A stretch of 64,000 nt of DNA, from contig JAOPWH010000118.1 in the NCBI GenBank assembly GCA_025965795.1, forward strand, positions 5,091-69,090. The letters are read 5' to 3'. The translations under genes and the position numbers were made by a program. Shown one piece after another: positions 49,597 to 60,922 of the stretch. Every line of letters begins with the position of its first letter. Position 1 is the stretch's first letter. The DNA comes from Blastococcus sp. (GTDB taxonomy: Bacteria; Actinomycetota; Actinomycetes; Mycobacteriales; Geodermatophilaceae). The notes beneath the pieces are model-generated. The model was not told the DNA's origin, did no database searches, and saw only the letters and a program-made list of their open reading frames with translations.

Positions 49597-50001
49597 TCAG
49601 ATCTGCTCGGTCGTACCCGGGAGAGGTGGCAGGGAGACATGCGCGCTGACGATCCGCCATGAGCCTTCGAGCCGTACCCACACCTGCGTCTGACGGCCCA
49701 CTTGCGCCGCGTTCTCTTCTTCGTACTCGGTCACGGCGAGGCCGGTGTCGGCACCGAACGTCGTGATTCTGGTCCTGTGCAGCCGGCGCTGCGAAGCGGG
49801 TGGCCGGCCGCGCCGGTACTCGGCGATCGCAGCCCACCCGTACAGGTTCTCGAGTACGCCGAACCGAACCGTGGCGTCGTCGTCCCAGAAGAAGCGGTTC
49901 AGGGCGTCTACGTCGTTGGCCATCAACGCGGCCTCGTACTCACGGAAGGCCGCTGTGACCTCTCGGACGACGTCCGGACGATCGACCTCGCTGAGCATCA
50001 T
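49597..50001 (-). CDS. AtzH/HpxZ-like (DUF3225) protein
   Basis: VTAAFREYEAALMAND, RFGVLENLYG, GRQTQVW, WRIVSAHVS. Confidence 0.88.
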   Translation of the reverse strand: MMLSEVDRPDVVREVTAAFREYEAALMANDVDALNRFFWDDDATVRFGVLENLYGWAAIAEYRRGRPPASQRRLHRTRITTFGADTGLAVTEYEEENAAQVGRQTQVWVRLEGSWRIVSAHVSLPPLPGTTEQI

Positions 50002-51395
50002 GACTGTTCCCCTGTCGTCGATCCGGCGATCTCGAGCGCCCGGGCGACGCGGAAGAGCGCGGCCTCGTCGTAGGGCCGGGCCACGAGCTGAACACCCACC
50101 GGTAGGTCGCCCGGCCCGCGCACCGGAACGCTCAGGGCCGGCAGCCCGACGAAGGCCCAGGGCTGGGCCAGCAGTCCGAGGTTCGCACCGATGGACAGGT
50201 CCTCGCCGCGGACCCGCAGGAACCGCTCTCCCACCCGGGGCGCCGTGCAGGGCGTGGTCGCCATGACGAGCACGTCGACGTCCTCGAAGACAGTCCGCAC
50301 CGCCTCGCCGTAGTGGCGACGGAAGCGCTGCGCGGCCAGATAGTCCACTGCGGGCACCAGTGCGCCGGCGAGAAGCGCCGGGCGCACTGCCGGGTCGTAG
50401 TCCCGCGCTCTCGTCCGCAGACGCGTGAGATGGCGTTGCCCCGCCTCAGCGGAGGTGATCACCGACGACGCCCCGCAGGCCTGGGCCGTGCCGGGGACAT
50501 CGACCGTCCGACGGACGTCGAGCGGTCGGAGGGCCGCCTCGACCGCAGACATCACCTCGTCACCGGCCACCTCGGTGAAGTGGCCACCGGCCATCGCCAG
50601 CCGCAACCCGTCCACTCCCCTGTCCATCTGTGGGAGGCACGCTTCCGGGGTGCCGGGAGCCGACACGGGATCACGATCGTCCGGCCCGGCGAGGGCGTCG
50701 TACGCCGCGGCCAGGTCGTGCGCCGTCGACGCCAACGGACCGACGTGGTCGAGGCTGGTCACGAACAGGGTGGTGCCGGTTCGCGACACCCTCCCGAAGG
50801 TCGGCTTGAGGCCGAAGACGCCGCAGAGCGAGGCCGGGACGCGGATCGAGCCGTTGGTGTCGGACCCCAGGGCGAGCGGGACCAGCCCGGCAGCCACGAC
50901 CGCCGCCGAACCACCCGAGGATCCGCCGGCCAACCGATCGGTGTCCCGAGGGTTGCGCGTCGTGCCGTGGTGGGCGTTCTCCGTCGTGAAGCCGTGCGCG
51001 TACTCGTCCATGTTCGTGGCGGCGACGACCACGGCGCCGTGGTCGCGCAGCCGCCGGACGGCACTCGCGTCCGCCGCCGCCGGGCCGCGCTCGGGCTCGA
51101 TGAGCGACCCGGCCCGGGTGCGATGCCCCTGCACGTCGAACAGATTCTTCACGGCGAAGGGCACCCCCGCGAGAGGGCCGGGGTCACGACCGTCCCGGAC
51201 GAGGGCGTCGACGCGGGCGGCGTCCTCGAGGGCCCGGTCCAGGTAGACGTCGGTGACGGCGTTCAGCACCGGGTCGTGCTCCTCGATCGACCGGACCGTC
51301 CGGAGGACGACGTCCACAGCCGTGGTGCGGCCGTTGCGGACCGCGTCGGCGGTCCGGATGGCAGACATCCCGGTCTCGGCGGCGACCACCGTCAC
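49998..51395 (-). CDS. AtzE/HpxY-like amidase-signature enzyme
   Basis: AVKNLFDV, NMDEYAHGFTTEN, GGSSGGS, GSDTNGSIRVPASLCG. Confidence 0.9.
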   Translation of the reverse strand: MTVVAAETGMSAIRTADAVRNGRTTAVDVVLRTVRSIEEHDPVLNAVTDVYLDRALEDAARVDALVRDGRDPGPLAGVPFAVKNLFDVQGHRTRAGSLIEPERGPAAADASAVRRLRDHGAVVVAATNMDEYAHGFTTENAHHGTTRNPRDTDRLAGGSSGGSAAVVAAGLVPLALGSDTNGSIRVPASLCGVFGLKPTFGRVSRTGTTLFVTSLDHVGPLASTAHDLAAAYDALAGPDDRDPVSAPGTPEACLPQMDRGVDGLRLAMAGGHFTEVAGDEVMSAVEAALRPLDVRRTVDVPGTAQACGASSVITSAEAGQRHLTRLRTRARDYDPAVRPALLAGALVPAVDYLAAQRFRRHYGEAVRTVFEDVDVLVMATTPCTAPRVGERFLRVRGEDLSIGANLGLLAQPWAFVGLPALSVPVRGPGDLPVGVQLVARPYDEAALFRVARALEIAGSTTGEQS

Positions 51396-55675: not shown

Positions 55676-56845
55676 TTACTTGGGCTGACCGGTGATGGGA
55701 TCGACCGTCGTGTCGATGCTCCCGTCAGCCAGGCCCTTCCGGACCTCCTCGAGCTTCTGGCTGACATCTGCCGGCACCTTCGCGTCGTGCGCAGGCGCGT
55801 AGGTGATGCCGTCGTTCTCCGCCGTCAGCTGGAAGACGCCGCCCTTGAAGTCTCCCCGGATCGCTGCGGCGATCTGGCTGAAGACGCCGAGATCGACGCG
55901 CTTGACGGCCGACGAGGCGATGCGGTCGGCGCCCTTGGCGGACCCGCTGCCGAAGATCGTGGCGTACTGGTCCTGGTCGACTCCGATGGCCCACGAGCCT
56001 GCCTCCGCGGCAGCGCGCACCCCTCCGGAACCGGTGATGCCGCCTGCACCGAAGATCACGTCAGCACCTTCGCCGAGCATCTGAGTGGCATCGGAGGCGC
56101 CCTTGGCCGGGTCGTCGAAGGAGGAGTTGTAGACCTTGAGAACCTGGATGTCCGGATTGACCGACTTGGCCCCGGCCTCGTACCCGTTCACGTACCGGAC
56201 GACGGGCGGGACGTCCTCGCGTCCGGCGACGACGCCGATGGTGTTGGACTCGGTCAGCAGCCCCGCCAGCGCACCGGCGAGGTAACCGCCCTGGTCCTCG
56301 CGGAACAGGATGCCCACGTAGTTGTCGGGATAGGACGCCTGGAACTGGTCGATCCCGACGAACTTCGTGTCCGGGTTCTTCGTCGCGAAGGTGAGGGTCG
56401 CGTCGGCGAGGAGGAAGCCGGTCGAGATGACGACGTCCGGCTTGCTGCTGAGGATCGTCGTGAGGTTGTTGTTGTAGTCGGCCTGGTTCGCCGTCTCGAT
56501 GAAGTCGGTCTTGATGCCGAAGCACTTCTCGGCGGCCTTGAGACCTTCGTACGCGAACTGGTTGAAGCTTCCGTCGGTCACCGTCCCGACGTCGGTCACC
56601 AGTCCGGCGGTGAAGCCGGCGGGCGCCTTGACGTCGGAGTAGTCGCTCTTGCACAGCTCGTCGAGCGTCACCGCGGCGGACACCTCGCCGCCCGCGGACG
56701 GCGAGGAAGACGCCGAGCTACTGCTCGTACTACTGGGCTCCGCCGTCTTCGTCGCGTCGTTGCCACACGCGGAGGCGAGCATGGCGAGACTGAGTCCGAC
56801 CGTCACACCCCAGCGTGATCGGATCGGGGTTCGGGTGGAGTGCAC
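55676..56845 (-). CDS. BMP/PnrA-family nucleoside-binding lipoprotein
   Basis: ASAC lipobox; DGSFNQ, FREDQGGYLAG, AIGVDQDQ, SAVKRVD. Confidence 0.92.
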   Translation of the reverse strand: MHSTRTPIRSRWGVTVGLSLAMLASACGNDATKTAEPSSTSSSSASSSPSAGGEVSAAVTLDELCKSDYSDVKAPAGFTAGLVTDVGTVTDGSFNQFAYEGLKAAEKCFGIKTDFIETANQADYNNNLTTILSSKPDVVISTGFLLADATLTFATKNPDTKFVGIDQFQASYPDNYVGILFREDQGGYLAGALAGLLTESNTIGVVAGREDVPPVVRYVNGYEAGAKSVNPDIQVLKVYNSSFDDPAKGASDATQMLGEGADVIFGAGGITGSGGVRAAAEAGSWAIGVDQDQYATIFGSGSAKGADRIASSAVKRVDLGVFSQIAAAIRGDFKGGVFQLTAENDGITYAPAHDAKVPADVSQKLEEVRKGLADGSIDTTVDPITGQPK

Positions 56846-56929
56846 GTCGTGGTCCTCTCGTTCGACAGGTCGCAAGACGCCTCTGATCCCTCGTCGCGCC
56901 GGGAGGCCGATCCGCGATTGACTGGTGCA

Positions 56930-56972: not shown

Positions 56973-57788
56973 GTGTCGACTCGATCACTGGGGGAGCTCA
57001 GCTGGGTCGACGTCCACCAGGTCGCGCAGGCGATGCCGCTCGTCGTGCTGCCCATCGGCGCGGTGGAGCAGCACGGACCGCACCTGCCCCTTCTCGTCGA
57101 CAGCATCGTCGTGGAAGCCATCGCGGCAGAGGTCTCAGTGCGCACTGGGGTGGCAGTGGCTCCGACGTTCTCGTACTCGTCGTCCCAAGGACACAGCAGC
57201 GTCTTCCCGGGCACTCTCGCACTGTCCCCTCGCACGACGGAACGGGCATTGGCCGAGATCAGCCGGTGGTTGGTGAACGCCGGCTTCACCCGACTCTTCC
57301 TGCTCAACGGGCATCTGGGCAACACCGGCGTCCTGTGGAACGCGGTCGACAACCTGATCGCGGAGCTCAGCCCGCGGGTGAGCATCGCCGGGCACAGTTG
57401 GTGGGACGTCGACAGCGAGCTGTGGTCGCAGGTCACAGCGGACGTGCCCGGCAGCCGTGGGGAGTTCCACGCGAATCTGGCGGAGACGGCGCTGATGCTG
57501 CATCTGCGACCCGACCTGGTGAGGATGGACCGAGCCGTCGACCAGCCGGAGGCCGCCTGGGCGTTCGCCTACGACATGAGCCGCAAATCCGAGTCCGGCG
57601 CCATCGGCCGATCGATCACCCAGGCCACACCGGAACTCGGGCGGCACCTGTTCGAACAGGCAGTGGCGGCCGTCACCGCCCTGGTCCACCGCATGCTGGC
57701 GGAAGCGCCGCCGGCGGCTCCTGCTGGCGACATCGGCGACTGGCGGGATACCGCGGTCCGTCGAATCACTTCACAGGAGGAAGGTTGA
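56973..57788 (+). CDS. Creatininase-family amidohydrolase
   Basis: GAVEQHGPHLPLLVD, FPGTL, NGHLGN, HANLAETA; AGGAGG RBS. Confidence 0.92.
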   Translation: MSTRSLGELSWVDVHQVAQAMPLVVLPIGAVEQHGPHLPLLVDSIVVEAIAAEVSVRTGVAVAPTFSYSSSQGHSSVFPGTLALSPRTTERALAEISRWLVNAGFTRLFLLNGHLGNTGVLWNAVDNLIAELSPRVSIAGHSWWDVDSELWSQVTADVPGSRGEFHANLAETALMLHLRPDLVRMDRAVDQPEAAWAFAYDMSRKSESGAIGRSITQATPELGRHLFEQAVAAVTALVHRMLAEAPPAAPAGDIGDWRDTAVRRITSQEEG

Positions 57789-57792
57789 TCTG

Positions 57793-58503
57793 ATGGAACA
57801 TCGTCCCCGGTACGCGCTGATACCCGGCGATCCCTCTCGCGTCCATCGACTGCTCGACCAGCTGGACGGCTCGGCCGTGGTCGACGGGCCGTCATACCTG
57901 GTGGAGGGAACCGGCACCGTCTCCGGCGAGCCGGTCCTGGTGGCGGCGACCGGGATGGGTGGCCCCAGCGTGGTCGAGACCGTCCGGCGGCTGGCGGACC
58001 GGGGCGTCGACACGTTCATCCGCGTGGGTGGAGCAGGTCCGGTCGCCGACCACGTCACGGCCGGGGACATCATCGTCGCCTCGGCCGCCGTCCGGCACGA
58101 GGGCGCGTCCCGCTCGCTGCTGCCGCCGTCGTTCCCGGCGGTCGCGGACCCAGGGGTGACCGAATCGCTGCTGGCGGCAGCCCTCGAGCGACGGCCGCAG
58201 GCGCTCTGTGGGGTGGTCCACACCAAGGACTCGTTCTTCGGTGAGGTGGACCCGGCCAGCAGTCCTGTCGAAGGGGAACTCCTTGCGGCCTGGCACGCGT
58301 GGCAGCGGCTGGGTGTCCTGGCGAGCGAGATGGAGGCTTCGGTCCTGTTCTGCCTCGCCCTCCGGGAGGGGCTGCGCGCGGGAACCGTGCTCAAGGTGAA
58401 CGCGATCGGGGACCACGCCGCTGAAGCGTGGCGCGACGACGTGGACCTGTGCCGGATCGCCGTCGACGGACTGGCCCGACTGATAGGGATCGACCGTGGC
58501 TGA
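57793..58503 (+). CDS. NP-I (uridine phosphorylase-like) subunit A; retains cis catalytic motifs
   Basis: PGDPSR, TGMGGPS, IRVG, PAVAD, EME; lacks N-terminal YH and REY. Confidence 0.85.
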   Translation: MEHRPRYALIPGDPSRVHRLLDQLDGSAVVDGPSYLVEGTGTVSGEPVLVAATGMGGPSVVETVRRLADRGVDTFIRVGGAGPVADHVTAGDIIVASAAVRHEGASRSLLPPSFPAVADPGVTESLLAAALERRPQALCGVVHTKDSFFGEVDPASSPVEGELLAAWHAWQRLGVLASEMEASVLFCLALREGLRAGTVLKVNAIGDHAAEAWRDDVDLCRIAVDGLARLIGIDRG

Positions 58504-59155
58504 GCTCTATCACCTGGGCGTGGACGTCGAGGCCGTCCCGTCACAGGTCCTCCTGGTGGGCCCCGACTTCCCGCTCACGGACCTGCTGTCGCGGTGGGAC
58601 GCCGTGTCGCTCGTCGCCAGGCGGGAGTACTCGTCACACCTGGTCGAGCGCTCGGGACGGCGGATCCTGGTCGTGCGGGTCGGAGTCGGCGCTCCACCAC
58701 TCGCCATCGCGCTCGAGGAGCTGTCCCGGGCGGGTGCGTCCACCTTCATCCTGGTGGGGACGGCGACCGGCATGTCAGCGCCCGAGCTCCCCTTGGTGCC
58801 GACCGGAGCCGTGCGGGGTGAGGGCACGAGTGACCAGTACGCACCGATCGCCTATCCCGCAGTCCCCGACGCACCCCTGCGAGCCCGTCTCGGCCGGCAG
58901 CTGGGCAGCAGCGGGGTCGCGGCCGGCCTCGTCCGCTCGGTGGACGTGGTCGAGCCGACCGACCAGCATCCGCTCGTCGCGGCCACGGACATGCTCTGTG
59001 CCTGTCTCTTCGTCGTGGCCGCTGCCAGGCAGGTGCGCGCGGCCGCGGCCGTCGTCGATACCGCTGCGCCGCCGGCCATGACCTCCGCGGTCGCCGAGGC
59101 GGCATTGCAGACGCTCGTCACCGACCGCCTCGACGAGGGAGGACGCCTTTCATGA
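58496..59155 (+). CDS. NP-I (uridine phosphorylase-like) subunit B; retains only trans motifs
   Basis: YHLG, RREY, AIALEEL, RGEGTS, YPAVPD; lacks GDPxR, RVG Arg and EME. Confidence 0.8.
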   Translation: MAELYHLGVDVEAVPSQVLLVGPDFPLTDLLSRWDAVSLVARREYSSHLVERSGRRILVVRVGVGAPPLAIALEELSRAGASTFILVGTATGMSAPELPLVPTGAVRGEGTSDQYAPIAYPAVPDAPLRARLGRQLGSSGVAAGLVRSVDVVEPTDQHPLVAATDMLCACLFVVAAARQVRAAAAVVDTAAPPAMTSAVAEAALQTLVTDRLDEGGRLS

Positions 59156-59941: not shown

Positions 59942-60922
59942 ATGATCGGGCTCAGGATGAACCTGCACACCCATCTCGAGGGTTGGTTGCGTCCGGCGAC
60001 CGCGCGTGAGCTGGCCCACGCGAACGGTGTTCCCAGCCCGCCGCAGGGCTGGGAGGCCGCCCTGCGGATGCCGTCCGCGGGCACCCTGACCGACTATCTC
60101 GCGCACGTCGCGGCCGCCTATCCCGTCCTCGGGCACGCCGGGGCCCTGACCCGCGTCACCCGCGAGGCGGTCGAGGACGCGGCCGCCGATGGCACCGCCT
60201 TCCTGGAGCTGCGCGCCGGACCCACCACCCATGTACGGGCCGGCCTGTCGCTGGACGCCGTCGTCGACGCCATGTGCGCAGGTCTGGCCGAGGGAGTTCT
60301 CGGAACCGGCATGCCGGCTGTCCTCGTCCTGGCGGTCCTGCGCGAGTTCGACGAGGAGGCCGCTCTCGAGGTCGTCGAGTCGGCGATCCGTCATCAGGAC
60401 GTCGGCGTGGTGGGCGTGGACCTCGCCGGGGACGAGGCCCGGTACCCGGACCTCAGGCGCTACGCCAAGGCGTTCGCCCGGGCGCGGTCGGCGGGCCTGG
60501 GGGTCACGGCTCACGCCGCCGAAGCCGCAGACGCGTCGGCGGCTCGACAGGCGCACGAGCTTCTCGGCGTGCACCGGATCGGACACGGGAGCCGAGTGGT
60601 TCTCGATCCGGAGGAACTGTCCTGGGCGGTCGACAACGGCCTCTGCTTCGAGGTCTGCCCCACCTCCAACGTCCTGACCGGCGCGGTGGGAACACTCGCC
60701 GAGCACCCCCTCGCTCCGATGCTCGCGGCGGGCGCGCGAGTCGTGCTCGGTGACGACGACCCGGTGACCACCGGCGCGCCGCTGTCCCACGAGCGCCGGC
60801 TGGTCACCGAAGGGATGGGGCTGGACCGGGGCCGGCTGCAGGCCATGAGCGACGCCGCCCTCGATGTCGCCTTCTGCTCCGATGCGGTCAGACGGTCCCT
60901 CCGCGAGGCCGGCGCCGGCTGA
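59942..60922 (+). CDS. Adenosine deaminase-family protein
   Basis: NLHTHLEG, DLAGDE, HAAE, RIGHG, EVCPTSN, DDDP. Confidence 0.9.
   Translation: MIGLRMNLHTHLEGWLRPATARELAHANGVPSPPQGWEAALRMPSAGTLTDYLAHVAAAYPVLGHAGALTRVTREAVEDAAADGTAFLELRAGPTTHVRAGLSLDAVVDAMCAGLAEGVLGTGMPAVLVLAVLREFDEEAALEVVESAIRHQDVGVVGVDLAGDEARYPDLRRYAKAFARARSAGLGVTAHAAEAADASAARQAHELLGVHRIGHGSRVVLDPEELSWAVDNGLCFEVCPTSNVLTGAVGTLAEHPLAPMLAAGARVVLGDDDPVTTGAPLSHERRLVTEGMGLDRGRLQAMSDAALDVAFCSDAVRRSLREAGAG

Follow-up and report, generated by a model that had tools for sequence, protein, structure and literature searches.

The window analysed here is a 64,000-nucleotide stretch of Blastococcus sp. DNA (contig JAOPWH010000118.1) with a high G+C content (~0.67–0.76), from a metagenome-type assembly of 317 contigs that is 88% complete. 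We focus on three consecutive genes, hereafter A, B and C, whose products all pass the gathering cut-off of PF01048 (PNP_UDP_1; 25.1 bits) and are thus members of the NP-I nucleoside phosphorylase superfamily by profile. A and B each lack part of the active-site residues of this superfamily, and the missing parts are reciprocal. The three genes and the overlap between A and B are as follows:

57793..58503, + strand: gene A, putative NP-I catalytic subunit, 236 amino acids, ATG start; PF01048 97.4 bits; best PDB match 3qpb (E = 5e-46)
58496..59155, + strand: gene B, NP-I paralogue, catalytically dead as judged by sequence, 219 amino acids, GTG start; PF01048 30.4 bits
59152..59937, + strand: gene C, canonical NP-I paralogue, 261 amino acids; PF01048 141.3 bits; 3qpb (E = 6e-48)
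58496..58503, + strand: 8-nucleotide overlap of the A stop and the B start (GTGGCTGA), read from the sequence

The best solved match of gene B is also 3qpb (E = 3e-18), aligned over residues 5–148 only. The A/B overlap indicates putative translational coupling; the B stop and the C start overlap as well (ATGA), and a purine-rich, Shine–Dalgarno-like run precedes each of the three starts.

In NP-I enzymes, one subunit supplies most of each active site, while a histidine that binds the ribose 5′-OH group and a phosphate-binding arginine come from the dimer partner. In a uridine phosphorylase structure these two residues are His19 and Arg59, which reach in from the adjacent monomer; Arg59 is important for phosphate contact, and mutating it reduces activity (PMC7271239). 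The same dimer-spanning site is present in E. coli Udp (PDB 1k3f and others; TIGR01718), where His8 and Arg48 come from the partner and Gly26/Arg30, Arg91, Thr94 and Glu196-Met197-Glu198 act in cis. We used E. coli udp (L028:8432-9193) as the reference and aligned it with 11 A, 11 B and 9 C orthologues; four more diverged pairs, treated separately, show the reciprocal pattern as well.

This alignment bears out the division of residues that a first-pass annotation had read in the three genes, including a glycine at the Thr94 position of A. The A protein keeps PGDPSR (Gly26/Arg30), IRVGGAG (Arg91 present, Thr94 replaced by Gly) and SEMEA (Glu196-Met197-Glu198). It starts 10 residues ahead of the PGDP loop, so that the His8-bearing strand with its YH motif is absent, and positions 48–49 in Udp numbering hold no Arg-Glu. 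The B protein has the N-terminus MAELYHLG, in which His6 is the His8 equivalent, and an RREY motif carrying Arg48-Glu49. It has lost Arg30 (VGPDFP), Arg91 (replaced by Leu in ILVG), Glu196 and Glu198 (replaced by Asp and Leu in DML) and most of the base loop. The C protein contains the complete cis and trans sets, including intact YH and AREY motifs. The diagnostic codons are:

57838..57840, + strand: Arg16 of A, equivalent to Udp Arg30 (phosphate, cis); invariant in 46 A-type sequences
58021..58023, + strand: Arg77 of A, equivalent to Udp Arg91 and followed by Gly-Gly-Ala-Gly; RVGGAG in all A-type proteins
58327..58335, + strand: Glu179-Met180-Glu181 of A, equivalent to Udp Glu196-Met197-Glu198 (ribose, cis); invariant, with Met180 at the predicted B interface
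58511..58513, + strand: His6 of B, equivalent to Udp His8 (partner-site ribose 5′-OH); invariant in the B family and at the predicted interface
58622..58627, + strand: Arg43-Glu44 of B, equivalent to Udp Arg48-Glu49 (partner-site phosphate); invariant and at the predicted interface

With Arg30, Arg91 and Glu-Met-Glu taken as a test of cis competence, A and C pass and B fails. B is therefore a family member by fold but probably an incompetent enzyme alone, because its cis phosphate- and ribose-binding residues are lost.

A hidden N-terminal His strand of A was considered and rejected. As the first-pass annotation had pointed out, an in-frame His codon lies seven codons 5′ of the A ATG with no start before it; position 57793 is the first ATG/GTG/TTG after the in-frame stop. 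The peptide around the upstream His, SLHRRKVDL, does not resemble xYHLG, and the 46 A-type proteins have short, unconserved N-termini. A separate observation concerns residue 42 of B (58619-58621), immediately ahead of the donated Arg. B-type proteins carry an additional basic residue here almost without exception (RRREY, with K or N in a few sequences), whereas canonical enzymes have His, Asn or Ala. The additional residue co-occurs with the Thr94-to-Gly change in A and, as a speculation, might compensate for it.

We then examined the conservation of this pattern. A word-indexed search with B returned ~31 orthologues of 213–235 amino acids, down to ~39% identity, and L4, Y5, H6, G8, R43 and E44 are invariant in all 31 sequences. 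An exhaustive B profile search over 1.84 billion representatives yielded ~23 B-type clusters at 50% identity, all of which have the His and the Arg-Glu pair and all of which lack Arg30, Arg91 and Glu198. A scan of genome contigs with the B profile gave only three true loci. Retention of His and Arg by B orthologues, on which the proposal of a donor subunit depends, is thus without exception among the 31 close homologues, the ~23 clusters and the 15 paired loci described below. A search with A gave 115 homologues, which separate cleanly into an A-type group (members ~44–85% identical) and a full-length S. pyogenes-type group. A-type proteins have no His strand, no Arg48-Glu49, RVGGAG and GEV or GEI, whereas S. 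pyogenes-type proteins have xYHxx, N-REY, RVGT[CS]G and GQH. In an alignment of 46 A-family sequences, G12, R16, R77 and S178-E179-M180-E181 are invariant, and the trans residues His8 and Arg48, both present in B and C, are missing from all 46. Because it recurs in all orthologues found, the residue pattern is far beyond chance.

Gene order is equally constant. An A-type gene stands directly 5′ of a B-type gene in 15 of 15 distinct loci, abutting it or overlapping it by 1–17 nucleotides. Eleven of these loci were reached from B and four from diverged A proteins; on the B side, the analysis covered the DNA surrounding eight B orthologues, three genome loci and the window. The overlap is mostly the same 8 nucleotides in the B-derived loci. 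Each of the four diverged A genes is followed by an overlapping gene of 208–225 amino acids with xELYHLG or RLRHLG plus [RK]RE[YF], and this partner is often below Pfam recognition. The co-occurrence of A and B anticipated by the first-pass annotation is therefore complete in this set, neither gene being found unpaired. A frameshift or fusion artefact was also considered and rejected, because L015, a complete genome, and many independent assemblies share the same gene boundaries.

Gene B evolves under relaxed yet clear purifying selection. Pairwise Nei–Gojobori ratios of non-synonymous to synonymous substitution rates (dN/dS) over nine loci are 0.15–0.61 for B, 0.13–0.44 for A and 0.10–0.22 for C, and the B ratio is below 1 in every pair; dS is near saturation in many pairs and high-GC codon bias lowers dS, so these ratios are, if anything, overestimates. 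The B frames are intact down to ~30–40% identity. The neutral decay of B that would have undermined the first-pass proposal is thus not what these data reveal. A and B each form a monophyletic group in a quick maximum-likelihood tree (Shimodaira–Hasegawa-like approximate likelihood ratio test (SH-aLRT) 100) and branch in a nearly congruent way, as expected for a pair inherited together.

Complex prediction points in the same direction. The A:B complex, predicted from alignments built for this analysis, scored 0.76, against 0.36 for the best control; 58 of 80 solved complexes attain that mark, as do 2 of 110 mismatched pairs. The A:B runs share at least 90% of their contacts, and the predicted local distance difference test (pLDDT) value of the partner is at least 91. 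On the B side, the predicted interface includes His6 and Arg43-Glu44; on the A side, it includes residues 13–15 (beside Arg16), the GMGGPS loop 54–59, the base loop 145–150 and Met180. Of the 28 invariant B positions, 13 belong to the predicted interface of 29 residues (Fisher p = 2.7e-6), and mean B conservation is 0.87 at the predicted interface versus 0.58 elsewhere. The prediction shows that A and B fit together in the manner of a canonical dimer; it is not proof of binding.

Conservation, pairing, selection and the predicted interface together support the proposal that A and B form an obligate heterodimer in which B would serve as the His/Arg donor. We consider it likely that A and B are the two halves of one obligate heteromeric NP-I phosphorylase with one composite site per dimer, and that C stands alone. 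We infer that A and B associate physically and that the activity of A depends on B. The unit would be an A:B heterodimer, plausibly assembled into an (AB)3 hexamer as in other hexameric NP-I enzymes. A would provide the entire same-subunit pocket, i.e. the phosphate-binding Gly12/Arg16 and Arg77, the ribose-binding Glu179-Met180-Glu181 and the base loop, while B would provide His6 and Arg43 across the interface to the A site. The mirror-image site, made of the B pocket and the missing donors of A, would be dead, and therefore one site per dimer would work. The overlapping stop and start codons would co-ordinate synthesis of A and B. C would be a separate, self-sufficient paralogue and is probably a homo-oligomer.

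Several points weigh against this heteromeric reading. The A–B pair is patchily distributed: no true B orthologue was found in the 24 same-genus genomes searched, and the pair occurs in one Modestobacter genome and in Nocardioidaceae metagenome-assembled genomes. The passing score of the complex prediction may reflect likeness to solved NP-I homodimers, and the prediction is silent on A:B versus A:A or A:C. The dN/dS of B, higher than that of its neighbours, indicates relaxed constraint, a result to be expected if selection preserves the interface and donor residues and leaves the pocket free to change. C, which has the same His and Arg and is usually nearby, could complement A too. Finally, having Gly in place of Thr94 may weaken A or alter its chemistry; the Thr107Ala mutant of PcUP1 (Thr94 equivalent) keeps ~5% activity (PMC7271239). 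As a separate observation, the patchiness of A–B would fit horizontal transfer of the cluster as a whole.

Three rival explanations were weighed. A might be complemented by C, or by either B or C: in a mixed A:C oligomer, the His and Arg would come from C, and B would be otherwise employed. C does have intact YH and AREY motifs, is coupled translationally behind B in the window and is present in most loci, but it is less tightly linked than B: three transporter genes separate C from A–B in L016, and C lies on the opposite strand in L029, whereas A and B are never apart. In addition, two same-genus genomes contain C-type genes without A or B within ~3.4 kb, and no C gene adjoining A–B was seen in L030-L032. 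Donation by C would also leave unexplained why B retains exactly His8 and Arg48-Glu49 while the rest is lost, and we regard this explanation as quite improbable. Alternatively, A might be active without donated residues, as a hydrolase-like or relaxed phosphorylase, and B might be a regulator, scaffold or ligand sensor. Some PF01048 members, i.e. the methylthioadenosine/S-adenosylhomocysteine (MTA/SAH) nucleosidases, do function without these residues, and the Thr94-to-Gly change and the GEV base motif of A hint at altered chemistry. However, both cis phosphate arginines are invariant in A, as in a phosphorylase, the pocket positions of B are variable with no sign of a new ligand site, and the conservation of B coincides with the donor residues and the predicted interface. 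This explanation therefore appears unlikely.

There is virtually no chance that B is a functionless, decaying duplicate. It has the weakest Pfam score (30 bits) and the top dN/dS of the operon, but its frame is intact, its length conserved and its motifs invariant over ~23 clusters at 50% identity; its dN/dS is below 1 in every pair and its overlap with A is conserved. B as a pseudogene is thus ruled out by conservation and dN/dS.

We also inspected the surroundings of A, B and C. The genes that flank them in the right arm of the locus, and the nearest divergent gene, are:

56973..57788, + strand: creatininase-family amidohydrolase, first gene of the right arm; PF02633 (E = 1e-62)
59942..60922, + strand: adenosine-deaminase-family gene, last of the right arm; PF00962 (E = 2e-67), TIGR01430 250 bits against a cut-off of 216.55
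55676..56875, − strand (divergent): BMP-family (PnrA-like) nucleoside ATP-binding cassette (ABC) substrate-binding protein; PF02608 (E = 3e-52)

Besides the BMP gene, the divergent minus-strand genes encode an ABC ATPase, two permeases, an amidase, a GntR/UTRA regulator, a PfkB kinase, a BtpA-family protein and an inosine–uridine-type nucleoside hydrolase. These neighbouring gene families place A, B and C in a divergon for nucleoside uptake and breakdown. The creatininase gene is syntenic in 10 of the 15 loci (L001-L003, L015, L019, L021-L023, L031 and the window), with a Bmp gene standing between it and A–B in L031. A Bmp gene lies beside the A–B pair or operon in the 12 loci with gene tables and in the window (L001-L003 are outside this count).

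The substrate is probably not plain uridine, because the uracil-specifying Gln166/Arg168 pair is absent from both A (FFGEVD) and C (FYAEG), with Glu at the S. pyogenes-type Gln position. A, B and C also miss the uridine phosphorylase equivalog cut-offs of TIGR01718 (280.3 bits) and NF008383 (262 bits), scoring 170/140, 82/61 and 221/187 bits, respectively. Ring-opening amidohydrolase genes of the AtzD/TrzD family (PF09663) and amidase genes lie beside Bmp-A-B in three loci (L020:1628-2683, L029:2750-3847 and L030:993-2030), with an additional 67-amino-acid gene between the AtzD/TrzD-amidase genes and the Bmp-A-B unit in L030. The window contains an amidase gene (49998-51395) and no AtzD gene. 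Because AtzD/TrzD and amidase genes occur near several A–B loci, and an amidase gene in the window, there are hints that A:B releases a pyrimidine- or triazine-like base (barbiturate- or cyanurate-like) whose ring is subsequently opened.

A second, more distant family of apparently dead NP-I paralogues (B2; P0210, P0212, P0224 and P0233), which emerged from the B profile search, keeps PQYH and HREY and has lost Arg30, Arg91 and Glu-Met-Glu. It carries a conserved N-terminal extension of ~35 residues. In 12 of 12 metagenomic loci (L034-L045), the B2 gene is preceded by an abutting or overlapping cis-intact NP-I gene, an example being:

L035:3243-4004 and L035:4004-4786: the two genes of one such pair

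In addition, the L033:1-998 fragment contains the intact SEMEA gene end upstream of a B2 gene. In most loci the upstream partner of B2 retains Arg48-Glu49 (L034 has Leu in place of the Arg), and its N-terminal motif is altered to xHGLxG (Gln in L044); its loss of the His is ambiguous, as a two-residue loop shift is possible. The L034 pair stands alone, outside any nucleoside cluster. B and B2 cluster together in the quick tree (SH-aLRT 98), but both are long branches with the same residue losses, and a single origin is therefore not claimed.

Tandem NP-I pairs in neighbouring clades (L046-L049) have all cis and trans residues in both copies. They may represent a precursor stage, before specialisation towards the heteromeric design, or just a pair of isozymes. 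Intact pairs, B2 pairs and A–B together look like a graded series towards reciprocal loss. The proposed intermediates would run from tandem pairs with both copies intact, through an intact gene with a dead partner, to reciprocal loss. A more specific proposal is that A–B is an (AB)3 half-sites-active phosphorylase that arose via duplication and reciprocal degenerative loss (a constructive-neutral 'ratchet'), with intermediates perhaps visible in metagenomes, and that it acts on a non-canonical nucleoside whose base is opened by nearby AtzD/amidase-type enzymes. We put this combination forward tentatively, as possible but somewhat doubtful.

Two other NP-I variants were encountered. A full-length form in Nocardioides albidus, Phytoactinopolyspora limicola and a metagenome (P0149, P0167 and P0172) keeps the His strand and N-REFE and has PSDPAH (Arg30 replaced by His), RVGTSL and SEMEM. 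P0215 (580 amino acids) consists of an S. pyogenes-type uridine phosphorylase domain fused to a C-terminal P-loop domain (GPTASGKT...) that resembles the tRNA isopentenyltransferase MiaA, by eye only.

NP-I phosphorylases such as Udp and DeoD are known from textbooks as homo-oligomers, and they find wide use as biocatalysts in the production of nucleoside analogues. If the heteromeric reading is true, A–B would be a clean bacterial case of shared active sites letting duplicates drift into obligate heteromers, with one subunit left to do no more than donate two residues, and A would probably show no activity if expressed by itself. The current annotations of A ('uridine phosphorylase') and B (merely 'phosphorylase family protein') would then need correcting. 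The A–B locus also points to an uncharacterised nucleoside catabolic cluster. The first-pass annotation knew of no described example in this family; this held in our limited full-text literature search, which found no description of a heteromeric, hetero-oligomeric or pseudoenzyme-containing nucleoside or uridine phosphorylase. The design principle is known from other folds, and its heteromeric NP-I version is apparently undescribed, on absence of evidence only.

Finally, we compared A–B with known systems. The S. pyogenes uridine phosphorylase (SpUP; 3qpb), a hexameric NP-I enzyme, is the best solved match of A, B and C and shares with them the fold and the phosphate/ribose motifs; its type of long base-loop insertion (KDxFxG...W..W..LG..ASEME) is also present in A. 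However, SpUP is a homo-oligomer in which each subunit has both cis and trans residues, whereas here the set is split over two gene products. A further differs from SpUP in the Gly at the Thr94 position and in GEV for GQH, and B in the loss of its pocket. Compared with E. coli Udp, A and C are without Gln166/Arg168, and A, B and C all score below the TIGR01718 cut-off. A likeness in design is found outside the family: trypanosomatid deoxyhypusine synthase is activated by a catalytically dead paralogue (PMC3663545). There, as predicted for the activity of A–B, an impaired catalytic subunit and a dead paralogue make an active heteromer. By contrast, deoxyhypusine synthase has an unrelated fold and is eukaryotic, with unlinked genes, while A and B overlap in one bacterial operon. 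Two hallmarks of this 'prozyme' design, a dead paralogue under purifying selection and strict gene co-occurrence (15/15), are found in A–B; a third, a physical complex whose activity depends on the dead subunit, is predicted. What sets A–B apart from deoxyhypusine synthase is that the dead subunit retains exactly the two known trans donors.

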